DNA from: Pseudomonadota bacterium
GTDB taxonomy: Bacteria; Pseudomonadota; Alphaproteobacteria; UBA11222
Reading direction: 5' to 3'
DNA length: 64,000 nt
Assembly: GCA_036758605.1 (NCBI GenBank)
Contig: DAIOWE010000001.1
Location: 935 to 64,934, forward strand
Shown: piece after piece, positions 3,491-59,515 of the stretch
Position numbering within the stretch: position 1 is the stretch's first letter
How the letters are laid out: each line of letters starts with the position of its first letter
Program-made: the position numbers and the translations under genes
Notes under the pieces: generated by a model
Told to the model about the DNA's origin: nothing
The model's database searches: none
The model's input: only the letters and a program-made list of their open reading frames with translations

Positions 3491-4126
3491 ATGGATATGG
3501 AAGGGTTTGAGCTGGTTTCGTTGCTGTGCTCGCGCTTGTGCCACGATTTGGTCAGTCCGGTGGGCGCCGTTACCAACGGCCTGGAGGTTCTGGCGGACGA
3601 AACTGACGCCGAAATGCGGGAAATGGCGATGCGCCTGATTACGCAAAGCGCCGACAGGGCTGCACACAGGCTGCAATTTGCCCGTCTGGCCTATGGTTCA
3701 TCAGGCGGTCCTGATGGAATGGTCGATATGGGGGAAGCGAAAAAGGTAACCGCTGCCGTGCTGGAAGATCATAAAATTACCCTGGAATGGCGTTGTGATC
3801 TGGGTGCGACGGGGCGAATGCCGGCTAAATTACTGGCTAACGCCGCCTTTCTGGCTGCTGAATCGCTACCCAGGGGCGGAATTCTGGTCGCGGCCCTTAG
3901 GCAGGAAGGCGGGACGACGAACATAGCAATAAACGCCAGCGGGCCCATGGTGCGCCCCATTGATGGCATGGCAGAAATTCTCAACGGGAACATGGCTGTG
4001 GCCAGCCTGGCGCCCCGCGCCGCCCAGGCCTTTTATACCGGATTGATCGCCCGTCTGATGGGTGGAAATCTGCAAATGTCCGTTCAACCTGAACAATTAC
4101 TTCTGCAAGGCGCGTTCATTATCTGA
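3491..4126 (+). CDS. chpT: Histidine phosphotransferase ChpT (CtrA/CpdR phosphorelay).
   Basis: ATG 3491 with RBS AGGACAGGAAA. Motif LLCSRLCHDLVSPVGAVTNGLEVL matches the ChpT DHp-like His site, followed by a degenerate CA-like domain. About 211 aa. Confidence 0.75.
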   Translation: MDMEGFELVSLLCSRLCHDLVSPVGAVTNGLEVLADETDAEMREMAMRLITQSADRAAHRLQFARLAYGSSGGPDGMVDMGEAKKVTAAVLEDHKITLEWRCDLGATGRMPAKLLANAAFLAAESLPRGGILVAALRQEGGTTNIAINASGPMVRPIDGMAEILNGNMAVASLAPRAAQAFYTGLIARLMGGNLQMSVQPEQLLLQGAFII

Positions 4127-4245: not shown

Positions 4246-7056
4246 ATGGACGATTTACTTAGCGAATTTCTGACAGAAACGAACGAAAGCCTCGATGTCG
4301 TCGACGTTGAGCTTGTCCGTTTTGAAAAAAACCCGACGGATAAGGCGGTGCTGGATAATATTTTCCGGCTTGTTCATACCGTTAAGGGGACATGCGGATT
4401 TCTTGGGCTTCCACGCCTTGAATCGGTAGCGCATGCCTCTGAAAATGTGTTGGGAAAGTTCCGCGACGGTGAATTGAAGGTTTCCACGGAAGCGGTAAGC
4501 CTCATCCTGAAATCCATTGATGCGATTAAAACCATTCTGGCGGAATTGGAAGCCAATGAATGTGAGCCGGAAGGTAATGATAAAGAACTGATTGATAAAC
4601 TGAATGAAGTTGCATCCGGTAAAATGGCTGTCTCCGCCCCCTCGCAAGTAGCGGAAGCTGAAAAAAAGAAACCGGTCAAAAAAGAAATGGCCGAAGATAC
4701 CCCCTCAAACAGCTTTGCTGATGGAGAACGCAAGATTGAGCCGGTGCTTGGCCGCGAATTGCTGCCTGGCGAAGTTTCCATGGAGGAGTTGGAAGCTGCA
4801 TTCAACGCGGCGCCAGGCCCCGATGAATGTCCGGCGCCTGTCAAAGTTGCAAAATCCGTTGTGGCCGAAGCCGTTGATGATGATGATGAAACGCAGGACC
4901 ATGCGCCGCAGTCAAATTCCAAAGCTAAAAAATCATCAAACGAGGCGGCGGCAAAGAACTCCGATACATCAATCGCCAATCAGTCAGTCCGTGTAACGGT
5001 TGATCTCCTGGAAGATCTGATGACAATGGTCAGCGAACTGGTGTTGACCCGTAACCAGCTTATGCAAATCGTGCGTGATCAGGAGGACAGTAAATTCAAG
5101 GTGCCGTTGCAGCGCCTGAATCTGGTGACAACCGAGTTGCAGGAAGGGGTTATGAAAACCCGCATGCAGCCGATCGGTAATGCCTGGCAGAAGCTTCCCA
5201 GAATTGTACGTGATCTTAGCCATGAACTGGGCAAAAAGATCGAACTGAAAATGATCGGCGCGGAAACCGAACTTGATCGTCAGGTGCTAGAGTTGATCAA
5301 GGATCCGCTCACGCATATGATTCGAAATTCAGCCGATCACGGATTGGAGAAGCCGGATAAGCGGCTGGCGGCGGGAAAAACCGATCTGGGTACAATCAAG
5401 CTCAATGCCTATCATGAAGGTGGGCACGTCATTATTCAGATTTCTGATGATGGTGCGGGGCTGAATATTGAGCGGATCAAACAGAAAGCCATTTCATCTG
5501 GCCTGGCCACCGAGGCAGAGCTTGAAGAAATGAGCGATTTGCAAATCGGTAATTTTATTTTCAAGGCTGGATTTTCAACCGCCGAGAAAATCACCAGCGT
5601 TTCAGGACGCGGCGTGGGTATGGATGTTGTCCGTACAAATATCGAAAAGATCGGCGGTACAGTTGATGTTCGTTCGACGCAGGGAAAAGGATCTGTCTTT
5701 ACGGTCAAGATACCGCTGACCCTGGCTATCGTGTCGGCGCTTGTCGTGGAATCTTATGGCGAACGTTTCGCCATTCCGCAAATCAGCGTCATAGAGCTGG
5801 TTCGGGCATCAGATAATTCCGAACATAAGATTGAGCAGCTAAAATCATCGCCGGTATTGCGCCTGCGTGATCAGCTTCTGCCGCTTGTCTATCTGAATGA
5901 CGTATTACGGATGAATCGCAAGGCCCCCCCTGTATCAGGTATTGATGGGGGACAGGACAATCTGGTTGCCGGGAAACGCCCCAAGGATGACTTTGTTGTG
6001 GTGACGCAAGTTGGCGCATTTCGCTTCGGTATCGTCGTTGATCGTGTATTTGATACAGAAGAAATTGTTGTTAAGCCGGTTGCACCTATTCTGCGCCATA
6101 TATCTGTGTTCTCCGGTAACACCATTCTGGGTGATGGTAGCGTGATCATGATCCTTGATCCAAATGGTATTGCCAATATGTATGGCAATATTGCGGTTGA
6201 CCAGGATGAAACCAAGGTTGAGGCGGCAGTAACCGAGGAAGGGGATAAAAAGGTCTCGCTGCTAATTTTCCGTGCAGGTGATGACACGCCCAAGGCCGTA
6301 CCGCTATCGCTTGTAGCGCGTCTGGAAGAGCTGGATTGTTCTATCGTTGAACATTCAAATGGACGTGATGTTATCCAGTACCGTGGCCAGCTTATGCCGC
6401 TAGTGCGTATTTCGGATAATTATCCCCTGCGGACAGAGGGGCGCCAGCAGATGCTGGTGTTTACTGATGAAACGCGCACCATGGGTCTGGCAGTGGATGA
6501 AATTGTCGACATTGTCGAAGATGTCCTGAAAATTGAACTCACGTCGGATACCACCGGGATAGTAGGCACAGCAGTCATCGCTAACGCCGCTACCGAGGTG
6601 ATAGATGTAAGCCATTATCTGGTAGTGGCTTTCCCGGACTGGTTTGAGGAAAGCAGGAAAACCAGGGTGAAAGCGGCGCGGCGCATACTCCTGATAGATG
6701 ACAGCCCATTCTTCCGGAATATGCTGGCCCCTGTGCTCGGAACTGCAGGCTACAAGGTAACGGCCGTCGAAAATGCAGAGCAGGCATTGGCGCTGAGAGA
6801 TGAAGGTTTTACATTTGATGCGATTGTCAGTGACATAGAAATGCCGGGGATAAGCGGATTTGAATTGGCCTCCATGATCAAGGCGGATGAGCGCTGGGGA
6901 GATACACCGATAGTCGCAATTTCAGCCCACGGAACAGCCGATGATTTTGAGCGGGGCAGAGCGGTTGGCTTCTCTGACTATGTCGTAAAGATGGACCGTG
7001 GCGCATTGTTACGCAGCCTGACTGAAACCTTGTCGGTATATGGAGAAGCAGTATGA
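4246..7056 (+). CDS. cheA: Chemotaxis histidine kinase CheA with a C-terminal receiver domain (CheA-REC hybrid).
   Basis: N-terminus MDDLLSEFLTETNESL (P1/HPt, …HTVKGTCGFLG…). HATPase domain (…GLNIERIKQKA…GRGVGMDVV…), CheW-like domain, then REC (ILLIDDSPFFR…DAIVSDIEMPGISGFEL…). The track ORF from 4192 starts on a TTG extension. Confidence 0.9.
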   Translation: MDDLLSEFLTETNESLDVVDVELVRFEKNPTDKAVLDNIFRLVHTVKGTCGFLGLPRLESVAHASENVLGKFRDGELKVSTEAVSLILKSIDAIKTILAELEANECEPEGNDKELIDKLNEVASGKMAVSAPSQVAEAEKKKPVKKEMAEDTPSNSFADGERKIEPVLGRELLPGEVSMEELEAAFNAAPGPDECPAPVKVAKSVVAEAVDDDDETQDHAPQSNSKAKKSSNEAAAKNSDTSIANQSVRVTVDLLEDLMTMVSELVLTRNQLMQIVRDQEDSKFKVPLQRLNLVTTELQEGVMKTRMQPIGNAWQKLPRIVRDLSHELGKKIELKMIGAETELDRQVLELIKDPLTHMIRNSADHGLEKPDKRLAAGKTDLGTIKLNAYHEGGHVIIQISDDGAGLNIERIKQKAISSGLATEAELEEMSDLQIGNFIFKAGFSTAEKITSVSGRGVGMDVVRTNIEKIGGTVDVRSTQGKGSVFTVKIPLTLAIVSALVVESYGERFAIPQISVIELVRASDNSEHKIEQLKSSPVLRLRDQLLPLVYLNDVLRMNRKAPPVSGIDGGQDNLVAGKRPKDDFVVVTQVGAFRFGIVVDRVFDTEEIVVKPVAPILRHISVFSGNTILGDGSVIMILDPNGIANMYGNIAVDQDETKVEAAVTEEGDKKVSLLIFRAGDDTPKAVPLSLVARLEELDCSIVEHSNGRDVIQYRGQLMPLVRISDNYPLRTEGRQQMLVFTDETRTMGLAVDEIVDIVEDVLKIELTSDTTGIVGTAVIANAATEVIDVSHYLVVAFPDWFEESRKTRVKAARRILLIDDSPFFRNMLAPVLGTAGYKVTAVENAEQALALRDEGFTFDAIVSDIEMPGISGFELASMIKADERWGDTPIVAISAHGTADDFERGRAVGFSDYVVKMDRGALLRSLTETLSVYGEAV

Positions 7057-9147: not shown

Positions 9148-10025
9148 AACCAGGTGATTTCGAATTTCTGGCAAACTTTCTGAAGAGCAGTTCCGGCCTC
9201 GTGCTAGGAGCTGACAAGATGTATCTGGTTGAAAGTCGGCTGTTGCCAATTACGCGCAAACGAAATCTGCCCGGCCTGACTGAACTTGTTCAAGAATTAC
9301 GGCTTGGAAAAGACCAAAGTCTTATCCAGGATGTCATGGAAGCAATGACCACGAATGAGTCATTTTTTTACCGTGATAAAATGCCTTTTGATAATTTACA
9401 CGCCGAGGTGTTGCCAAAATTTTTGATGGCTCGCCAATCACAGCGGCAATTGCGTATATGGTCTGCGGCGGCCTCAACCGGCCAGGAACCCTATTCCATT
9501 GCCATGATTTTGAAAGAAATGGCGGCGTCGTTTCAGGGGTGGCGTGTTGATATTATAGGCACAGATATTTCTAAAGAAGTCCTGGAAAAGGCGCGCGCAG
9601 GCATGTACAGCCAGTTCGAAGTACAGCGCGGTTTGCCAATTCAGATGCTGGTAAAATATTTCAAGCAAATTGGTGAAATGTGGCAGGTCGATGCTGCCTT
9701 GCGCGCCATGGTTCAGCTAAAGGAAGGCAATCTGCTTTCAAGTTTTTCCGGATTGGGAGCATTTGATATAATCTTCTGCCGGAATGTGCTGATCTATTTC
9801 GACCAGGCGACCAAGAAGGATGTGCTCGAACGTATGGCAAAGCAAATGCCGGACGATGGGGTTCTGTTTCTTGGTGCGGCGGAAACCGTACTTGGTTTAA
9901 CAAATTCTCTTGTCCCCATAAAGGGATTGCGCGGTGTGTATACCAAAGCATCGTCTGTTGCGGAGAAGAGTTTGCCAGCATCATCCGAGTTGAAGGCGCC
10001 CATTTGGGCTGGCTTGGCCAGATAG
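9144..10025 (+). CDS. cheR: Chemotaxis protein methyltransferase CheR.
   Basis: 293 aa; …FFYRDKMPFDNL…IWSAAASTGQEPYSIAM…DIIFCRNVLIYFD…. 4-nt overlap with the cheB stop. Confidence 0.9.
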   Translation: MKPGDFEFLANFLKSSSGLVLGADKMYLVESRLLPITRKRNLPGLTELVQELRLGKDQSLIQDVMEAMTTNESFFYRDKMPFDNLHAEVLPKFLMARQSQRQLRIWSAAASTGQEPYSIAMILKEMAASFQGWRVDIIGTDISKEVLEKARAGMYSQFEVQRGLPIQMLVKYFKQIGEMWQVDAALRAMVQLKEGNLLSSFSGLGAFDIIFCRNVLIYFDQATKKDVLERMAKQMPDDGVLFLGAAETVLGLTNSLVPIKGLRGVYTKASSVAEKSLPASSELKAPIWAGLAR

Positions 10026-10045
10026 CTCATTCAAAATTATTTTCA

Positions 10046-10083
10046 CAAAAAAACACCCCAGGCTTATTGGGGTGTTTTTTTTG
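10046..10083. terminator. Bidirectional rho-independent terminator between convergent cheR and ctrA.
   Basis: AAAAAAACACCCCAGGCTTATTGGGGTGTTTTTTTT: 6-7 bp GC stem flanked by an A-run and a T-run. Confidence 0.6.
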
Positions 10084-10099
10084 CTTATTTGGAAATGTG

Positions 10100-10807
10100 T
10101 CAGGCAGCTTTTTCTTTGCTAGCAACGGGCGATTCAGAATCGCGAAGAACGTAGCCGCGCCCCCAAACAGTTTCGATATAATGTTCAGAGCCGGTTGCCG
10201 CCGCCAATTTCTTGCGGAGCTTGCATATAAAGACGTCGATGATCTTGAGTTCGGGTTCATCCATCCCGCCATAAAGATGATTAAGGAACATTTCCTTGGT
10301 CAGCGTCGTTCCCTTGCGAAGCGAAAGCAGTTCGAGCATCGCATATTCCTTGCCGGTCAGATGAACCCGATGGCCATCAACTTCGACGGTCTTGGCGTCC
10401 AGGTTCACGGTCAATTGCCCGGTTTTGATTACAGACTGGGCGTGGCCCTGTGATCTGCGGACAATCGCATTAATACGGGCGATCATTTCATCCTTATGAA
10501 ATGGCTTGGTCATAAAGTCGTCAGCGCCGATGCCAAGCCCCTGAACCTTGCTTTCCATATCGGACAGACCGGAAAGAATTAAAATAGGCGTGGAAACCTT
10601 TGCCTGTCGCAGTTTTTTCAGAACGTCAAAGCCGCTCATGTCGGGCAGATTCAAATCGAGAATGATGATATCGTAGTCATAGAGCTTGCCTAAATCCAGG
10701 CCCTCCTCCCCCAAATCGGTAGTGTATAAATTAAAACCGGCCTGGTTAAGCATAAGTTCAATGCCCTGAGCTGTTGCGCTATCGTCTTCAATTAGGAGAA
10801 CTCGCAT
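10100..10807 (-). CDS. ctrA: Cell-cycle / motility master response regulator CtrA (OmpR family).
   Basis: [20 protein letters not shown]…[33 protein letters not shown]…[53 protein letters not shown] is near-identical over long stretches to the remembered Caulobacter CtrA. Confidence 0.9.
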
Positions 10808-52079: not shown

Positions 52080-53453
52080 ATGATTGTAAAAAACATCCTC
52101 TTTGCCACTTCGTTTACGGCATTGCTGTCGTCTGCGGCGCTGGCAGGGGTGCCAGCTGAGGTCGCAGACCGGCTTGGCAAAGACCTGACCCCACTGGGTT
52201 CGCAGAAATCAGGCAACAAGGAAGGCACGATCCCGGAATGGACGGGTGGATTGTCGGAGCCGCCGTCAAATGTGACCTATAAAATTGGCGATCGTCACCC
52301 GGACCCCTATTCGGCTGATAAGCCGCTATTCACAATCACAGGGGCGAACAGCGCACAGTATGCAAAAAATCTGAGCGAAATGCCTTTGGCGATGTTCAAG
52401 GCGTATCCTGATTCCTTCAAGATGAACATCTATCAGACCCGGCGCTCCTGTGCACAGCCTGCGGCGGTGTATGAAGTTGTGAAAAACAATGCACTGAATA
52501 GTGAGCAGTCGATGGATGGCGCCGGCATGTCGGGTGCGATTCGCTCGACCGCTTTCCCGATCCCGAGCACGGCGCAAAGTTTGATCTGGAACCATCGTCT
52601 GAAGTATCGCAATTTCAAGGCGACTCGTCAGTTGGTGTTTGCCGCGCCAACCCGCAGCGGTGACTTTACCCATTATGTTGCGCAGGACGAAGTGTTGCAG
52701 AATTATGGTGATCCTGCGATCAAGGATGTGTCAGAGCTTAACAACATCTCTCTCAAATATATCTCCAACACGATCGCTCCGGCCCGTAGCGCGGGTAACG
52801 TGATCCTGATTCACGAAACCATCAACGTCGCCCAAGGCCGCCGCAAGGCATGGGTGTACAGCCCCGGCACACGCCGTGTGCGCCGCGCGCCGAACATCGC
52901 GTATGACAATCCCGGCACCAATTCTGACGGCCTGCAAACGACCGATTCGTTTGGCGGCTTTAGTGGCGCGACCGACCGTTATGACTGGACCTATATCGGC
53001 CGTCAGGAAACCTATATGCCAGCCAATAATTACCGGCTGGCGCAGCGCGACCTGCAATATAAGGACATCTTCATTGCTGGCCCGCACATCAATCAGGATC
53101 TGCCGCGTTACGAATTGCAGCGCGCGCATGTTTTTGAAGCTAAGGTGCGCCCTGAAACCCGCCATATCTATGCCAAACGCAAGTTCTGGATGGAAGAAGA
53201 TAGCTGGTTCATCGTGCAAACCAGCGCCTATGACTCACGCGGGGATCTGTGGCGCGTACAGGAACAGTTTGCGCAAACCTATTATGAAGTTCCGGTTTGC
53301 GACCGCGTCGGCGCGGTTTCCTATGATTTGAACGCCGGCCGTTATCTGGTCGACAGCTTCGTCAACCAGGAGCCGCAGATCAGCTGGAACGCGGATGAAC
53401 TGTCCGAGGACCGTTATACCCCGGACGCGATCCGCCGGTTGGGCGTTCGTTAA
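52080..53453 (+). CDS. Secreted DUF1329-like protein (LolA-like fold family).
   Basis: Signal peptide MIVKNILFATSFTALLSSAALAG; …GTIPEWTGGL… and overall length are consistent with DUF1329. RBS AAGAAGGG. Confidence 0.45.
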   Translation: MIVKNILFATSFTALLSSAALAGVPAEVADRLGKDLTPLGSQKSGNKEGTIPEWTGGLSEPPSNVTYKIGDRHPDPYSADKPLFTITGANSAQYAKNLSEMPLAMFKAYPDSFKMNIYQTRRSCAQPAAVYEVVKNNALNSEQSMDGAGMSGAIRSTAFPIPSTAQSLIWNHRLKYRNFKATRQLVFAAPTRSGDFTHYVAQDEVLQNYGDPAIKDVSELNNISLKYISNTIAPARSAGNVILIHETINVAQGRRKAWVYSPGTRRVRRAPNIAYDNPGTNSDGLQTTDSFGGFSGATDRYDWTYIGRQETYMPANNYRLAQRDLQYKDIFIAGPHINQDLPRYELQRAHVFEAKVRPETRHIYAKRKFWMEEDSWFIVQTSAYDSRGDLWRVQEQFAQTYYEVPVCDRVGAVSYDLNAGRYLVDSFVNQEPQISWNADELSEDRYTPDAIRRLGVR

Positions 53454-53477
53454 GCCGTCTGATTATCTGACTTAAAG

Positions 53478-53508
53478 CAAACGGGCCGCCCGAAAGGCGG
53501 CCCGTTTT
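53478..53508 (+). terminator. Rho-independent terminator after the DUF1329 gene.
   Basis: AAACGGGCCGCC-CGAAA-GGCGGCCCGTTTTGTT. Confidence 0.6.
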
Positions 53509-53542
53509 GTTATACCAACGGCCTGATGAACAGACCCGTTGT

Positions 53543-53611
53543 GTCATTCTGAGCGAAGCGAAGAATCCCCATCCATTTCGGGGAGATCCTTCGCTTCGCT
53601 CAGGATGACAG
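53543..53611. repeat. Palindromic dispersed repeat, copy 1 (69 bp).
   Basis: GTCATTCTGAGCGAAGCGAAGAATCCCCATCCATTTCGGGGAGATCCTTCGCTTCGCTCAGGATGACAG; a second inverted copy lies at 59024-59122. Confidence 0.7.
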
Positions 53612-53647
53612 GTCAGAGCATAGGGCTGTTGGTATTATTGAACTGGT

Positions 53648-55108
53648 TCAGCGTTTTACCTGCGACAAAAGCATTTTCCGCAAGCGTGGCGTAAATGGCG
53701 GGCGCATGAAACGGCCAATATCAAAAATCCCGCCCTGTTCATAAACAGCCTTGGCGTGGCTGAAATTCTTGAAGCCGTCATAGCCGTGATAGGATCCCAT
53801 GCCACTGGCCCCGACGCCGCCGAATGGTAAATCTTCCTGGGCGACATGCATCATGACGTCATTTATGGCGACGCCGCCCGAAGTAGTGCGCTCCAGCAGT
53901 CGCCGTTTTTCGGCCGGGTCATTGCCGAAATAGTACAAGGCCAGCGGGCGCGGATGGGCGTTGACGTAATCGATAACCTCATCGATCCCGGCATAGGATT
54001 TGACCATCAGCAATGGCCCAAAAATTTCTTCCTGCGCGATCTTCATGTCTTCGGTTACATCAAGCAAAAGCGTAGGCGGGATTTTATGCGCGGGCTGCTG
54101 CGAAAAATCTTCATTGGCCGGATTAATTTCAACAATCCTCGCCCCCTTTGACCTGGCGTCGGCGACATATCCCTGCAAACGGTCATAATGGCGCTGATTG
54201 ATGACCGATGTGTAATCCGGGTTTTCCTTCAGAGTGGGATACATGGTTGCGACGGATCGCTGGGCCGAGGCGACAAAGGCGTCTTCCTGGCCTTTGGGGA
54301 CATAGACATAATCCGGCGCCAGACATATCTGACCGGCATTCAGCATTTTGCCATTCATGATGCGGTCGGTGGATGTCTGCATCTGGCATGACTTGCTGAT
54401 GATGGTTGGGGACTTACCGCCAAGCTCCAGCGTTACCGGCACCAGATTTTCGGCGGCTGCGCGCATGATGCTCTTGCCAACCGATGTTGCCCCAATGAAG
54501 ATGATATGATCAAAGGGCAGGGCGCTGAACGCCTGCCCAACCTCTGGCCCGCCGGTGAATACCGCAACCTCATTTTCATCAAAGGCTTTGGCGAACATGT
54601 GCGCCAATAATTCGGCGGTGCGCGGCGTATATTCCGAAGGCTTCATCATCACCCGGTTTCCCGCCGAAAATATTCCCGCGAGCGGCGAAAAGGTCATCGC
54701 CAGGGGAAAATTCCAGGGTGTAATCAGGCCGACGGTTCCAAGCGGCTGATATTCCACCCGCGACTTCGCTCCCGTAAGATTAAATGGAAATGTACTGGCG
54801 CGTTGATCCGGCCGCATCCATTTGCGCAACTGTTTCTTTGCTTCTTTTAGGCCGCCAAGACAGCCAACAACATCGGACATGATGGACTGATCCGTACTGC
54901 GATGGCCGAAATCGGCGCTAAGCGCAGAGCAGATTTCATCCTGATAATCAACGATCAGGCCAATGGCGCGATTAATGCGGTCGATGCGCAGTTCAGCGCT
55001 TGGCGTACCCTCATGGATATGGGCCTGCTTCTGGCGCTCCAGTACTGTGCGCATTTGCGCCTCCCTGCTCGTGTTTCCGTCTTTAGATAAATTTTCCGTG
55101 GCGCTCAT
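53648..55108 (-). CDS. NAD(P)-dependent aldehyde dehydrogenase (coniferyl-aldehyde DH-like subfamily).
   Basis: 486 aa; …ELGGKSP… catalytic region …GQICLAPDYVYV… (Cys); strong RBS GGAGGAAG. Confidence 0.8.
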   Translation of the reverse strand: MSATENLSKDGNTSREAQMRTVLERQKQAHIHEGTPSAELRIDRINRAIGLIVDYQDEICSALSADFGHRSTDQSIMSDVVGCLGGLKEAKKQLRKWMRPDQRASTFPFNLTGAKSRVEYQPLGTVGLITPWNFPLAMTFSPLAGIFSAGNRVMMKPSEYTPRTAELLAHMFAKAFDENEVAVFTGGPEVGQAFSALPFDHIIFIGATSVGKSIMRAAAENLVPVTLELGGKSPTIISKSCQMQTSTDRIMNGKMLNAGQICLAPDYVYVPKGQEDAFVASAQRSVATMYPTLKENPDYTSVINQRHYDRLQGYVADARSKGARIVEINPANEDFSQQPAHKIPPTLLLDVTEDMKIAQEEIFGPLLMVKSYAGIDEVIDYVNAHPRPLALYYFGNDPAEKRRLLERTTSGGVAINDVMMHVAQEDLPFGGVGASGMGSYHGYDGFKNFSHAKAVYEQGGIFDIGRFMRPPFTPRLRKMLLSQVKR

Positions 55109-55279
55109 ATTATTCTTCCTCCAGGTAGCAGGGCACAGACTAACATGTTGCCGGTGTCCGGCAAGCAGTTCTCAAGACAGTAAAATTTGATACTAATCGG
55201 AGCGAACGGGTTAATAAAATAATTACGCATCGTCAGCATAGTAAGCCAGGTTAATACCCCCCTAATTAATTAGGTATAA

Positions 55280-56377
55280 ATGACTGTAATCAGACCCACT
55301 TCTGCGGGATCCGCAGCGAACCATGCCGGCGTGGCGATGCGGCTTATGGAAGAGCATGAAGTCGAACCAAATCCATTCAATTACCGGCTCTGGTTTGCGT
55401 ATGCGAGCGGCGAAAACAAAAAGATCAACCAGACAATTAATATCCTGCTGTCAAACAAACGCAGATTTAGCGCGGCCATATGCGACGATCTCTATTATCA
55501 ATTCTTTCAGAGTCTGGATGAAGTGACGCGGTTAGCCGATGTCACCACGGACATCGAAAGCCAATTGGTTGAACTGATGTCCAGCCTGTCAAATGCCGGC
55601 GTGGAGACTTCGCAGTTCGGTCAGGCGCTTGAAGGGGCCTCGAAAGCCCTCAAAGTTTATCCGGGGACGGAAGAAAGTTTAAGACCAATAGTTAATTTGC
55701 TGATGACGGCGACACGGCACATGGGGGCGAACAATCAAAATCTTCAAACCCATCTGCAAAGGTCAAGCGAACAGATAATGGATTTGAAATCCACCATCGA
55801 AACAATCCAGGCAATTTCGGTGACTGATCAGCTTACGGAGATTGGTAACCGCCGGTCCTTTGATGATCACTTGCGTGAATACGCCATGCAGAGTATGGAA
55901 ACCGGGGATCCGCTTTGCCTGTTATTGCTGGATATAGACAAATTCAAGAACTTTAACGATACATGGGGGCATACGCTTGGCGATCAGGTGTTGCGCCTGT
56001 TTGCCTCATGCATGAAACACGCGGTTGGGAGTAAGGGATTCTGCGCCAGATATGGTGGCGAGGAATTCGCGGTTCTCCTACCTGACAAAAATATAGCGCA
56101 ATCGGTGAAAATAGCCAACGCTATCCGGAAATCCATTTCCGGAAGGGAAATAGTAAATCGGTTCAATGGCCAAAAAGTGGGTACGGTTACCGTATCCATT
56201 GGCGCCGCGCAATTTTCCCAAGGCGAACCGCTTACGTCCCTCGTTGAACGCGCGGATGCCGGGCTTTATGCAGCAAAGGAAAACGGCCGCAACCGGGTTG
56301 TTTGCGAAAACGAACTGCGCAACATGCAGCAAAGTCGTGACACTCCTGGAACAACTAAAATATCGAGCGCTTCTTGA
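55280..56377 (+). CDS. GGDEF-domain diguanylate cyclase with an N-terminal coiled-coil region (DgcB-like).
   Basis: …DQLTEIGNRRSFDDHL…LLLLDIDKFKNFNDTWGHTLGDQVL…RYGGEEFAVLLPD…. Confidence 0.8.
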   Translation: MTVIRPTSAGSAANHAGVAMRLMEEHEVEPNPFNYRLWFAYASGENKKINQTINILLSNKRRFSAAICDDLYYQFFQSLDEVTRLADVTTDIESQLVELMSSLSNAGVETSQFGQALEGASKALKVYPGTEESLRPIVNLLMTATRHMGANNQNLQTHLQRSSEQIMDLKSTIETIQAISVTDQLTEIGNRRSFDDHLREYAMQSMETGDPLCLLLLDIDKFKNFNDTWGHTLGDQVLRLFASCMKHAVGSKGFCARYGGEEFAVLLPDKNIAQSVKIANAIRKSISGREIVNRFNGQKVGTVTVSIGAAQFSQGEPLTSLVERADAGLYAAKENGRNRVVCENELRNMQQSRDTPGTTKISSAS

Positions 56378-56465
56378 GTGCTTGTTGCGGCCGTCCGGAT
56401 CACTACTCTCTACTCTCAAAGTATGCTTAACTCATTGCTTCCCAACCAGCACAGGGCAGCAAACA

Positions 56466-57257
56466 ATGGAATATCAGCATATCCTATTCACGTGGTCCGA
56501 TGGGGTCGGCCATATCTCCTTTAATTCACCAGGCACACTCAACGCCCTGACACGCGATATGTTGCATGAGTTTGAGGCGGCGATGGATTTTTGTGCCACA
56601 CCTGAAAGCGGTGTGCGCTGTCTGTTGCTGACGGGCGAGGGGCGCGGCTTTTCTTCCGGCATGAATTTGGCCGATCCGGGCGGGCCCAGGCTGCCCCGGC
56701 CGGATGCGGGCCAGGTTCTGGACGAAATTTTCAACACGCTTTTGCTGAAACTGCGGGATATGGAAATTCCCATTGTCGTGGGTTTGCAGGGGGCGACGGC
56801 GGGCATTACCATGAGTATTGCGCTGATGGGTGATATTATACTGGCGGCGCGTTCGGCCTATCTGTTGCAGCCCTTTGCAAATATCGGATTGATACCGGAT
56901 GGCGGCGCCACCTGGCTGTTGCCACGCATTCTGGGCAAGGCGCGGGCGTTTGAACTGTCGCTGTTGGGAGACCGTTTGTCTGCTGAAAAGGCATTGGCCT
57001 GGGGCTTGATCAATGATGTGTTTGACGATGACAAATTGCGCGATGCGGCAATCGCCATGGCGCACCGTCTGGCGCAGGGGCCGACCCGCGCCTATGCGCT
57101 GACCCGCAAGGCGTTCTGGGAAGGCTTTGATAATTCGTTCAGGGAGCAACTGCTTGTGGAGCGCATGTATCAGCGCACAGCCAGCCGCACCGCAGATGCG
57201 CAAGCCGCCGTGCGCGCCTTTCTGGCAAAAAAGCCCCCGGTATTTACGGGCAAGTAA
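56466..57257 (+). CDS. Enoyl-CoA hydratase/isomerase family protein.
   Basis: MEYQHILFTWSDGVGHISFNSPGTLNALT…GEGRGFSSGMNL… crotonase fold; the track ORF from 56166 is a spurious N-terminal extension overlapping the GGDEF gene. Confidence 0.8.
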   Translation: MEYQHILFTWSDGVGHISFNSPGTLNALTRDMLHEFEAAMDFCATPESGVRCLLLTGEGRGFSSGMNLADPGGPRLPRPDAGQVLDEIFNTLLLKLRDMEIPIVVGLQGATAGITMSIALMGDIILAARSAYLLQPFANIGLIPDGGATWLLPRILGKARAFELSLLGDRLSAEKALAWGLINDVFDDDKLRDAAIAMAHRLAQGPTRAYALTRKAFWEGFDNSFREQLLVERMYQRTASRTADAQAAVRAFLAKKPPVFTGK

Positions 57258-57271
57258 GGACGTTTCAGTAG

Positions 57272-58369
57272 ATGCAATTGACAAATGACGAACAGAAATT
57301 CGGGCTTGTCGCAAAGCTGTTTCACTGGGGCGCGGCGCTGCTTGTATTCGCGCTGCTTCCCATAGGTTGGTACATGCATGATTTACCGCGTGGGTTAGAG
57401 AAGTTTCGCTATGTGGAACTGCATAAATCGCTGGGGCTTTTGCTGTTGGCGTTTATGATCGGGCGCAGTCTTTGGCGGGCCTATAATCCGCCGCCGCCAT
57501 TGCCCGCCGGTCTGCCCATCTGGGAAGTGCGCGCCGCAATACTGACGCATTGGGCGCTTTATGGGGCGCTGTTCGGGCAGGTTTTTATCGGCATGGGACT
57601 GGTCTGGACCGCGAATTCACCACTCACATTTTTTGGCTGGATTCCCGTGCCCAGTCCATTTGCCCCCGACCATGATCTGCATGAACTGGGTGAAGAGCTT
57701 CATGAGTTATTCGCGTTCGGCATTGTTGGATTGCTCGTAATGCATATAGGCGCGGCGCTACGCCATCATTTTATTCTGAAGAATGATATTTTGCGGCGGA
57801 TGCTGCTCGTGATGCTGATCGCATCCGGCGTTTTTATAATAGCGCCGGTTAATGCAACAACATGGAATGTGGCGCCGGCGAGCCAGCTTCTGTTCCATTT
57901 TACGCAGTCTGGCATGTCCATCACCGGAAAGTTTGAGCGCTTTGACGCGCGCATCGAGTTTGATCCGGACAAACCCGAGGATGGGCGCATCGATGTCACT
58001 ATCGATATTGCCAGCCTGGATACGCAAAACGCGGAACGCGACGCCACGCTGCGTTCGGCTGAATTGTTTGACGCCGAAAAGTTTCCGCAGGCGCAGTTCT
58101 CCGCTGATAAAATCCGGGTTGCATCGGAAGGACAATATGAGGCCGCAGGCACACTTACGATACGTGACATTACATTGCCGCTGGTGTTACCCTTTGCCCT
58201 GCAACTGGAAAATGATGATGAGGGCGGTCGTAATGCATCTGCTTCCGGCATGGTTGCCATTTCACGCCGCGATTTCGGTCTGGCGCGGGGACAATGGGAA
58301 GCCACAGATATTGTGGCGGATGAGGTCAAGATAGAGATCAGGCTGGAGGCCGTGCAGGCGCCGAATTGA
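57272..58369 (+). CDS. Fusion protein: cytochrome b561 (CybB-like, 4 TM) plus a C-terminal periplasmic YceI-like domain.
   Basis: N-terminal …KLFHWGAALLVFALLPIGWYMH…HKSLGLLLL…HWALYGALF…HIGAALRHHF…; C-terminal …FERFDARIEFDPDKPEDGRIDVTIDIASLDTQNAERDATLRSAELFDAEKFPQAQF…. Confidence 0.75.
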   Translation: MQLTNDEQKFGLVAKLFHWGAALLVFALLPIGWYMHDLPRGLEKFRYVELHKSLGLLLLAFMIGRSLWRAYNPPPPLPAGLPIWEVRAAILTHWALYGALFGQVFIGMGLVWTANSPLTFFGWIPVPSPFAPDHDLHELGEELHELFAFGIVGLLVMHIGAALRHHFILKNDILRRMLLVMLIASGVFIIAPVNATTWNVAPASQLLFHFTQSGMSITGKFERFDARIEFDPDKPEDGRIDVTIDIASLDTQNAERDATLRSAELFDAEKFPQAQFSADKIRVASEGQYEAAGTLTIRDITLPLVLPFALQLENDDEGGRNASASGMVAISRRDFGLARGQWEATDIVADEVKIEIRLEAVQAPN

Positions 58370-58390
58370 AAATCCGATCCAAGGGGGAAA

Positions 58391-58993
58391 ATGATGCGAA
58401 GTGTGAAAGCTAAACTGGTTTCAGCCGGCGCCGTTGTGGCCATGGCGGGTCTGGCTCTGTCCGCAAACGCGGCGGATAAATTTCTGCTGGATCCCACCCA
58501 TGCCAGCGTTTTATTTGGTGTGTCGCATCTGGGATTTTCAAAAACCTTTGGGCGTTTCAATAAAGTTGAAGGGGCCTTTACGCTGGACGCGGACGCGCCG
58601 GAAAAATCATCCGTCGTCGTCACCATGGACGCGGCCAGCCTCGACACAAATCACGAGAAGCGGGACGAACATTTACGCGGCAAGGATTTTTTTGATGTCG
58701 CGCAGTTTCCAGCACTTACCTATAAAAGCACATCGGTGAAACTGACGGGTGAAAAGACGGCGATAGTTACAGGTGATCTGACGATGCATGGAGTGACGAA
58801 GTCTGTGCCGCTTGACGTGACGCTGGTGAATGTCGGGCCAAATCCGATGGACCCTACCAAGACCAAAATAGTCGCCGGGTTTTCCGCGCGCGGAACCCTT
58901 AAACGCTCTGAATTCGGCATGGGGTATGCGGCACCGGTGCTGGGCGATGATGTGGAAATAATCATCGAGGTGGATGCAATCAAGCAGCCGTAA
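58391..58993 (+). CDS. Periplasmic YceI family protein.
   Basis: Signal peptide; …HASVLFGVSHLGFSKTFGRFNKVEGAFTLD…ASLDTNHEKRDEHLRGKDFFDVAQFPALTY…. Confidence 0.8.
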   Translation: MMRSVKAKLVSAGAVVAMAGLALSANAADKFLLDPTHASVLFGVSHLGFSKTFGRFNKVEGAFTLDADAPEKSSVVVTMDAASLDTNHEKRDEHLRGKDFFDVAQFPALTYKSTSVKLTGEKTAIVTGDLTMHGVTKSVPLDVTLVNVGPNPMDPTKTKIVAGFSARGTLKRSEFGMGYAAPVLGDDVEIIIEVDAIKQP

Positions 58994-59023
58994 TGCGTTA
59001 TATCAGCGGCCCTATGCCCTGAC

Positions 59024-59122
59024 CTGTCATCCTGAGCGAAGCGAAGGATCTCCTCGAAATGGATGGGGATTCTTCGCTCTCGCCGCGCAGGCGCTGGCGC
59101 AGCGGGTCGCTCAGAATGACAG
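59024..59122. repeat. Palindromic dispersed repeat, copy 2 (99 bp, inverted relative to copy 1, with a roughly 27-bp internal insertion).
   Basis: Its reverse complement aligns to copy 1 end to end apart from the extra segment CCCGCTGCGCCAGCGCCTGCGCGGCGAGAGC. Confidence 0.7.
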
Positions 59123-59149
59123 CGAGTCTGTTCATCAGGCCGTAATGCA

Positions 59150-59515
59150 TTACTTCTTCTTGACCAGGCGCGGGGCTTTTTTGATGGCGGCGCGTTGTGC
59201 AGCGGCAAACGCATTCTTTGCCCACACCGCCAATTCATCTGTATCGTCATACAGCGCATCGGGGATGAGGTAATAGGACATGGCCATGGTGCGGCCATCC
59301 TTGCGTTCAAACAGGAACGGATCCTGGCCCGCGTTCTCAAACTCCGCGCGGTTGTGATCATCCACTTTCAGATAAATCTGATCGTCAATGATAAGGCCGA
59401 ACATGAGGTCATCACGAAAAATGCCCGCACCGCCGAACATGCTGCGGATACGAATGGCGCCAAAAGCGGTGAACAGATCACGTACATATTCGCGGTATTC
59501 CTCGCTGACCGGCAT
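59150..59515 (-). CDS. TfoX N-terminal-domain family protein.
   Basis: 121 aa; …YVRDLFTAFGAIRIRSMFGGAGIFRDDLMFGLIIDDQIYLKVD… resembles TfoX_N. Confidence 0.5.
   Translation of the reverse strand: MPVSEEYREYVRDLFTAFGAIRIRSMFGGAGIFRDDLMFGLIIDDQIYLKVDDHNRAEFENAGQDPFLFERKDGRTMAMSYYLIPDALYDDTDELAVWAKNAFAAAQRAAIKKAPRLVKKK

Follow-up and report, generated by a model that had tools for sequence, protein, structure and literature searches.

The 64,000-nucleotide stretch analysed here (contig DAIOWE010000001.1 of assembly GCA_036758605.1, from a bacterium of the Pseudomonadota; hereafter the window) carries two related palindromic sequences in intergenic regions, and the question raised by this locus is what these repeats are and how they came to their present positions. 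An earlier note had described a 69-mer at coordinates 53543–53611 and an inverted copy at 59024–59122, taken them for a dispersed and mobile family resembling miniature inverted-repeat transposable elements (MITEs) or repetitive extragenic palindromes (REPs), and proposed that they could serve as bidirectional terminators or stabilisers of transcripts. Each copy is probably an independent insertion of a non-autonomous MITE-like element of ~122 nt that ends in TACCAACGGCC...GGCCGTTGGTA, generates a 3-bp TNA target duplication, and carries as cargo an inverted pair of hairpins of the CGTC/TGTC-REP superfamily.

Insertion of the two copies

Both the 69-mer and its inverted copy are present in the window sequence. 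The 25-nt arm GTCATTCTGAGCGAAGCGAAGAATC matches with up to two mismatches at three places (53543 on the + strand, 53585–53609 on the − strand and 59026 on the + strand), against 0.00 matches expected from 100 dinucleotide-preserving shuffles, and a 15-nt core is found three times where 0.10 would be expected; the fourth of the four arms, in copy 2, is split by 28 nt. Scans for the arm, the core and the end sequences found no third copy in the window, and an exact match to TACCAACGGCC at 3571 lies inside an open reading frame (ORF) and is a chance match. Pfam assignments and stop codon coordinates agree with the placement between convergent genes given earlier: copy 1 lies between a DUF1329 gene (+ strand, ending at 53453) and an aldehyde dehydrogenase gene (− strand, stop codon at 53648–53650), and copy 2 between a YceI gene (+ strand, stop codon at 58991–58993) and a TfoX_N gene (− strand, stop codon at 59150–59152).

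The similarity is not confined to a short core, and GTCAT...ATGAC, previously regarded as the termini, are the outward-facing tags of inner modules. A repeat finder matched 53557–53635 in inverted orientation to 59000–59078 (79 nt, 94% identity) and paired 53518–53542 with 59119–59143, such that the similarity reaches about 29 nt past GTCAT...ATGAC on each side. The inserted units are 53513–53634 (122 nt) and, inverted, 59001–59149 (149 nt), with TTA at every boundary and true ends of TACCAACGGCC...GGCCGTTGGTA.

Syntenic contigs of relatives, reached through TfoX protein homologues that are 83–90% identical (GCA_040960765.1, GCA_030841465.1, ERZ27235085 and JGI 3300006007), contain empty sites at both positions, and both copies are therefore insertions. 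In L303 and L304, whose TfoX is 87% identical, the spacer between the DUF1329 and aldehyde dehydrogenase genes is 72 nt; a terminator-type hairpin is kept there and the element is absent. Alignment at this site leaves a gap of 131 columns (93 + 38), broken by a 9-nt stretch of ambiguous placement, as compared with 125 nt for the element plus one TTA. At the position of copy 2, L305 and L307–L310 (TfoX 83–90% identical) have only 4 nt between TfoX and YceI. The empty site in L307–L309 reads GCAGCCGTAATGCG followed by a single TTA and TTTCTTC (the sequence up to this TTA is GCCGTAATGCG); in the window, GCAGCCGTAATGCG and TTA are followed by the element (59001–59149), a second TTA, and CTTCTTC. 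The TTA on the YceI side (58998–59000) corresponds to the single TTA of the empty site, and that on the TfoX side (59150–59152) doubles as the TfoX_N stop codon on the − strand. L201 could not be used as an empty-site comparison, as its synteny with the window stops at the element. A more distant relative, L306, has an insertion sequence (coordinates 9380–10295; DDE_Tnp_1, ends GGGCGTGTCGTCAATT) directly after TfoX, where synteny ends, and the 3′ end of TfoX seems to be a recurrent insertion point; as a candidate parent of the element this insertion sequence was rejected, its ends being unrelated.

The same comparisons bear on the proposal that the elements are retained as bidirectional terminators, or as stabilisers of mRNA 3′ ends, for the two convergent gene pairs, which we consider improbable. 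As RNA the whole elements are predicted to form very stable long hairpins (−66 and −77 kcal/mol; z −9 and −6), and a U-rich sequence, ACUUCUUCUU, follows copy 2 on the + strand, but a scan of 53300–59400 for hairpins followed by a T-run lists neither copy. Both copies do lie in the 3′ regions of convergent genes, and REPs are often found downstream of genes according to the passages of Di Nocera, De Gregorio and Rocco (2013; PMC3733652) drawn on here; copy 1, however, adjoins a pre-existing terminator hairpin, which relatives lacking the element also conserve. This hairpin (53479–53509; AAACGGGCCGCCCGAAAGGCGGCCCGTTTTG), preceded by an A-run and followed by a T-run, is common to the DUF1329 and aldehyde dehydrogenase genes, and copy 1 was inserted between it and the aldehyde dehydrogenase stop codon. 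At the other site, the empty YceI–TfoX spacer of the relatives is only 4 nt wide, and the element was thus not selected for terminator function at this location. Target duplication together with the dispersal of copies accounts for its presence without any function, although a side effect on transcripts is possible. For the window itself, the two copies amount to ordinary insertions without demonstrated influence on the genes around them.

Dispersal is evident from a metagenome scan with the junction CTCAGGATGACAGGTCAG, and the family loci described here are drawn from among the matches listed. The full element occurs with differing flanks in L130 (twice), L131, L158, L163, L166, L178, L184/L195, L225, L241 and L242, and partial copies, also with flanks that are all different, are present in L157, L176, L201 and L210. 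Window and metagenome contigs together give at least 13 distinct loci with the full element. All complete copies end in TACCAACGGCC...GGCCGTTGGTA, which form terminal inverted repeats, and at 11 of the 13 distinct loci an identical TNA triplet lies on either side (TCA/TCA, TAA/TAA or TTA/TTA), as a direct repeat and not as a continuation of the inverted repeat; the behaviour of the outer unit is accordingly that of a MITE. These loci, with the TNA duplications and the empty sites at both positions in the window, bear out the view of a dispersed, mobile repeat of MITE/REP type. Copy 1 is 93–95% identical to the copies in L130, L157, L176, L242 and L225. The metagenome contigs also include L211, from a strain 96.8% identical around copy 1, and L201, from a relative with ~75–80% identity over 30.5–37.4 kb of the window. 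A BLASTN search of the element against a plasmid collection gave no match and is uninformative, since a query this short probably cannot reach the E-value limit.

It is extremely improbable that the two inverted copies delimit a 5.4-kb composite transposon or invertible cassette running from the aldehyde dehydrogenase gene to YceI. They are 94% identical inverted repeats bracketing a segment that also exists as contigs of exactly that extent, three independent Logan contigs of 5446–5447 nt stopping precisely at the two copies, as assemblies do at repeats. Relatives lacking both elements have the same gene order and orientation between DUF1329 and TfoX, which excludes such a transposon or mobile cassette; in addition, each copy has its own TTA duplication, and the contigs examined include none with the segment inverted. 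The genes between the copies are, by Pfam, those for aldehyde dehydrogenase, a GGDEF protein, enoyl-CoA hydratase, a cytochrome b561–YceI fusion, and YceI. This region is mosaic among strains: up to 55054 the identity of L211 to the window is 96.8%, and over the GGDEF and hydratase genes (window 55054–56822) it is only 70%, and L303 and L304 lack the GGDEF gene (55280–56377), with an FAD_binding_3 gene between YceI and TfoX there instead.

Structure of the element and its hairpin module

Each element encloses an inverted pair of modules of the form TGTC-ATYCT-GA-GCGAAGC-GA-AGRAT-C with the tags facing outward (TGTC at 53542–53545 and 59025–59028 on the + strand, and at 53607–53610 and 59118–59121 on the − strand). 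The minimum free energy structure of the first module of copy 1 is ....(((((..((...))..))))).... and the stem comprises nine positions (ATYCTGAGC/GCGAAGRAT), opening with A-T and T-A and having G.A/A.G, which are not Watson-Crick pairs, at positions 6 and 7. Three of the window arms have a 3-nt GAA loop, and in the fourth arm the tip is lengthened by 28 nt. Following ...AGRAT the tail is CCC or CTC in the window, and CTC, CTG, CTT and CCC predominate overall. The tip GCGAAGC conforms to GCGNAGC, a DNA mini-hairpin motif according to the part of PMC13037366 consulted, and in other phyla this minimal tip is replaced by longer hairpins of 6–26 nt.

The two halves of the module stem covary, within each arm separately. 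With the Y and R stem positions left free, the 137 exact matches listed, which come from many phyla, are divided between T/A (77) and C/G (60) with no mixed combination (T...G or C...A), and when the five-base stem halves are left entirely free the halves are fully complementary at 149 of 163 sites. Further compensated stems include ATTTC/GAAAT, ATTCC/GGAAT, ACCCT/AGGGT, ATGCT/AGCAT, GTCCT/AGGAC and ATGTT/AACAT. Among dimers with an intact partner arm, 35 of 57 carry unlike stems, each arm still being complementary to itself. Copy 1 is such a heterodimer, with one T/A and one C/G stem, and pairing between its arms is broken at exactly those positions. Arms that are unlike and yet self-complementary indicate that the selected unit is the single arm and that the long hairpin is a by-product. 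The earlier description of the repeat as an imperfect palindrome holds insofar as the two 29-nt arms of copy 1, separated by 11 nt, are 90% complementary, and the whole of copy 1 folds as one long hairpin (−40.7 kcal/mol as DNA, z −10.2); the conserved unit, however, is one arm with its own covarying stem.

Copy 1 (53513–53634) lies on the + strand in the family orientation, with the GATGAACAGAC end on the left, between a left target-site duplication TTA (53510–53512) and the matching triplet after the element (53635–53637). Its left terminal inverted repeat, TACCAACGGCCTGATGAACAGAC (53513–53535, + strand), is conserved in the left ends of every complete copy of the family; the first 11 nt form the inverted complement of the right end. 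Hairpin module A (53542–53570, + strand) has the TGTC tag, an ATTCT/AGAAT stem, tandem G.A, the GCGAAGC tip and a CCC tail, and matches the core 25-mer exactly. It is followed by an 11-nt inter-module spacer, ATCCATTTCGG (53571–53581), conserved among family copies, and by module B (53582–53610, − strand), a C/G stem variant that reads TGTCATCCTGAGCGAAGCGAAGGATCTCC on the − strand and differs from the 25-mer at two positions, exactly the two covarying positions of the stem. The right terminal inverted repeat GTCAGAGCATAGGGCTGTTGGTA (53612–53634, + strand) contains the conserved right end GTCAGGSCATAGGGCCGYTGGTA.

Copy 2 (59001–59149, − strand; 149 nt) is inverted relative to copy 1 and is damaged at one end. 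A module with the C/G stem variant and a minimal tip, recognised by the 25-mer match and by the repeat finder, occupies 59025–59053 on the + strand. The other module (59066–59121, − strand) reads TGTCATTCTGAGCGA, 28 nt of additional sequence, and AGCGAAGAATCCCC on the − strand, and a branch hairpin is predicted there by folding. The additional segment (59079–59106, − strand) is thus located in one arm as previously noted, where it measures 28 nt and not the ~27 bp first given. It recurs in independent copies (L130b, L178, L184/L195 and L201) and is an extension at the module tip, not a random insertion. Copy 2 also lies between 13-nt direct repeats, CCGTAATGC(G/A)TTA, at window coordinates 58988–59000 and 59140–59152, and its terminal AATGCA (59144–59149) stands in place of the family TGGTA. 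The damaged end looks as if it had been patched from the opposite flank via a GCCGT microhomology, and copy 2 is probably no longer able to move.

Other copies vary within the module as well. In L130 (3720–3891, − strand) and L131 (7398–7539, − strand) a different insert of 23 nt, CCTGAAGATGCAGGTACCAATAA, follows GTCATTCTG in one arm, and additions recur in the module interior. In L166 (6322–6443) the segment between the hairpin tips has the opposite orientation to that in every other copy, such that T/A and C/G stem halves are mixed and the inter-module spacer is flipped along with the inner stem halves, which suggests inversion or template switching between the arms. In several phyla (L024, L030, L033, L037, L044, L048 and L116) tandem arrays of 5′ half-modules, for example GTCATCCTGAGC plus ~8 nt, with a period of 19–21 nt and two to four units, are found immediately upstream of a full module.

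ORF finders and metagenome gene callers place spurious small ORFs over copy 2 (window 58998–59225 on the − strand and 58974–59273 on the + strand), and a spurious 50-aa product is called across the element in L001–L003 (L001 10608–10760). As a practical matter, then, these elements both break assemblies, leaving contig ends, and give rise to spurious small ORF calls.

Modules in other bacteria and phages, and neighbouring GIY-YIG genes

The module is far more widespread than the outer element. A scan with GTCATYCTGAGCGAAGCGAAGRATC of one genome per species identified at least 120 stretches with a module, and among the matches listed the hosts include Acidobacteriota, Nitrospirota, Chloroflexota, Bacteroidota, Bacillota, Patescibacteria, Gemmatimonadota, Verrucomicrobiota, Planctomycetota, Cyanobacteria, Ignavibacteria, Bdellovibrionota, Omnitrophota and Nitrospinota, corresponding to more than 12 phylum-level groups. 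The exact 25-mer is also present in 58 viral contigs of IMG/VR (L245–L302). Six of these (L250, L266, L273, L279, L301 and L302) have protein clusters in common, with the 25-mer among the shared genes, some of which resemble phage structural proteins by eye. In L043, L049 and L086 (Acidobacteriota and Saccharimonadales) the same core dimer is inside a different outer inverted repeat, CAGGCTGCGGAAAAA, and outer shells that differ by lineage may commonly surround this core.

A GIY-YIG profile search of all fetched loci yielded only five matches, every one adjoining a module. Four are 0–88 nt from an exact 25-mer and the fifth (L177) is truncated by a module. The intact genes, in L013, L114, L126 and L293, encode proteins of 93–109 aa with PF01541 only and have modules on both sides. 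Pfam assigns these proteins to GIY-YIG alone, NCBIfam gives nothing specific, and their sole PDB match is the UPF0213 protein 1zg2 (E 0.001). In other genomes the module is itself translated as an N-terminal extension, such as AKRRI, of GIY-YIG proteins. Among the neighbours of 178 loci, of which only the GIY-YIG cluster was checked against Pfam, there is no recurrent gene resembling a transposase; the largest neighbour cluster is sensor-kinase/receiver/GGDEF-like by eye, the viral clusters are accounted for by phages related to one another, and the small GIY-YIG cluster alone was informative.

No Rfam family is matched at gathering thresholds anywhere in the window. Around copy 1 there are only sub-threshold chance matches, the best of which, STnc70, is scored in part from the neighbouring terminator hairpin. 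A hammerhead ribozyme, considered on account of a CUGAUGA in the left arm, was ruled out, there being no GAAA after it and no Rfam match. Searching the literature by sequence string returned nothing relevant.

Movement of the element and comparison with known systems

The inner module can be compared with two described groups of repeats. REPs tagged with CGTC or TGTC have been classified earlier and include dRS3 of Neisseria and RPE-4 and RPE-6 of Rickettsia (PMC3733652). In the passages of that paper considered here, the CGTC REPs have a stem of 8–9 bp whose first two positions are complementary A-T, a loop of 4–5 nt and a 3-nt tail with consensus CCA, and no transposase is known for them; they are mostly inverted dimers, frequently heterodimers, located between convergent or unidirectional genes and often downstream of genes, the dimers sometimes within longer palindromes. 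As far as those passages go, the window modules are alike in having an unpaired 5′ TGTC tag, a stem starting A-T/T-A and a short C-rich tail, both copies being inverted heterodimers placed after convergent genes, with the dimer nested in a longer, lineage-specific palindrome. They differ in occurring in phyla beyond the five treated there, and in lying inside an element with terminal inverted repeats and TNA duplications, for which these passages contain no parallel report.

The GIY-YIG genes beside modules led to the second comparison, with the Ssn/NTS system of Neisseria (Chenal et al. 2025, PMC11893778). There, NTS (CGTCATTCCCGCGMAVGCGGGAATCYRG) and related hairpins termed Ssn-related motifs (SRM), repeats that the earlier work had placed among the CGTC/TGTC REPs, flank ssnA, whose product is a 94-aa GIY-YIG nuclease that binds the hairpin as single-stranded DNA only, cuts a few nucleotides upstream, and reduces transformation by NTS-flanked DNA. 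The window module and CGTCATTCCCGCGMAVGCGGGAATCYRG have in common GTCATTC...GAATC and an overall architecture, with the HGTCWY – hairpin – RNCYNB framing recognisable by eye. Like NTS, the module brackets genes, and the NTS-ssnA-NTS arrangement has its counterpart in the four loci with modules on both sides of a small single-domain GIY-YIG gene. By its sequence the module is a variant of the CGTC/TGTC REP or SRM kind, and not a verified SRM.

Tentatively, and with a probability below even, the module could form a class of its own among Ssn-type hairpins, so far uncatalogued: a tandem-G.A stem with a mini-hairpin tip that is missed by the SRM search string, distributed over more than 12 phylum-level groups and phage contigs, and accompanied by its own clade of small GIY-YIG nucleases. 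Pairs of such hairpins could also hitch-hike in MITEs that form target-site duplications, which would be a second, nuclease-independent route of dispersal. The wider interest of the repeats lies in the recent identification of a partner enzyme for tagged hairpin repeats, small GIY-YIG Ssn nucleases established in 2025 as cutting them as single-stranded DNA and modulating transformation in Neisseria (PMC11893778). A variant not captured by the SRM string recurs in one and the same form in many phylum-level groups and in phage contigs, and also flanks small GIY-YIG genes. Hairpin pairs carried as cargo of a conventional target-duplicating mini-transposon would explain how they reach new intergenic sites in a lineage where no nuclease gene is seen.

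The outer element was presumably moved in trans by a transposase making 3-bp staggered cuts and not by cleavage at the hairpins. Hairpin-based single-strand transposition, as in IS200/IS605 elements and REPINs, to our knowledge leaves no target duplication, which argues for a transposase. An Ssn-type enzyme is disfavoured because the boundaries given by the empty sites and TNA duplications are 29 nt outside the tags, whereas SsnA of Neisseria cuts within a few nucleotides of its hairpin. The modules (TGTCATYCTGAGCGAAGCGAAGRATCYCC) would form in single-stranded DNA and, if the genome encodes an Ssn-type GIY-YIG nuclease, would be bound by it and, by analogy with Neisseria, cut a few nucleotides upstream. 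At both sites in the window the element would be little more than a passenger, tolerated in the 3′ regions of the convergent genes.

A competing account, unlikely in our view, dispenses with a DDE transposase and regards the whole element as a REPIN-like doublet that is copied by a GIY-YIG enzyme of the Ssn type in the role of a domesticated transposase, with the outer palindrome as a lineage-specific extension. The arrangement of module, gene and module around GIY-YIG genes does resemble an insertion sequence, as discussed in PMC11893778, but no GIY-YIG gene was seen in the fetched element-carrying loci. Other lineages have their own outer palindromes around the same core, CAGGCTGCGGAAAAA being an example, and in Halothiobacillus neapolitanus CGTC REP dimers lie inside longer palindromes that have no free copies (passages of PMC3733652). 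Set against these parallels are the target duplications and the position of the boundaries, as above, and we prefer insertion of a transposase-mobilised element with the hairpin pair as its cargo.

Several observations weigh against this preferred interpretation or against parts of it. The count of 13 loci pools the window with metagenome contigs and is not a number of copies within one genome, and two of the 13 (L178 and L242) have no perfect duplication. For the single arms, nearest-neighbour energies as DNA (−1.9 and −2.7 kcal/mol; z −0.8 and −0.5) do not improve on those of shuffles, so that the case for the single-arm hairpin is the covariation itself. Unlike the CGTC REPs, as described in the passages cited, the module has two tandem G.A mismatches in its stem and, in place of a loop of 4–5 nt, a GAA triloop or a long extra hairpin. 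The published SRM string, HGTCWYN(0-2)YYVSBRHN(0-5)WNVSBRGN(0-2)RNCYNB (PMC11893778), matches neither of the arm stem variants although it matches the NTS consensus, and its only match in the window is at an unrelated site (5962–5992). A profile search found no GIY-YIG/Ssn gene in the window or in the fetched element-carrying loci, and no parent insertion sequence with matching ends is present in the fetched loci, the window not having been screened for transposase genes.

Among mobile repeats, the element resembles REPINs and the GTAG REPs in that two self-folding inverted units can form one long hairpin and singlets are found alongside doublets; it is unlike the RAYT-mobilised GTAG REPs in its TGTC tag, in having a target-site duplication, and in that no RAYT gene is seen nearby. 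It resembles a MITE in its size of ~120 nt, the lack of an ORF, its terminal inverted repeats and 3-bp TNA duplication, its dispersed copies and its empty sites. Duplications of this kind, 3-bp TNA, are typical of some groups of the IS5 family, whose ends are GAG/GGC, and the ends of the window element bear no resemblance to these. It differs from the usual MITE in that its interior is a REP dimer and not a deleted transposase gene. The repeat is thus a real mobile element of a known kind, and what is new is the sequence variant together with the packaging of a REP/SRM dimer in a MITE that forms target-site duplications.

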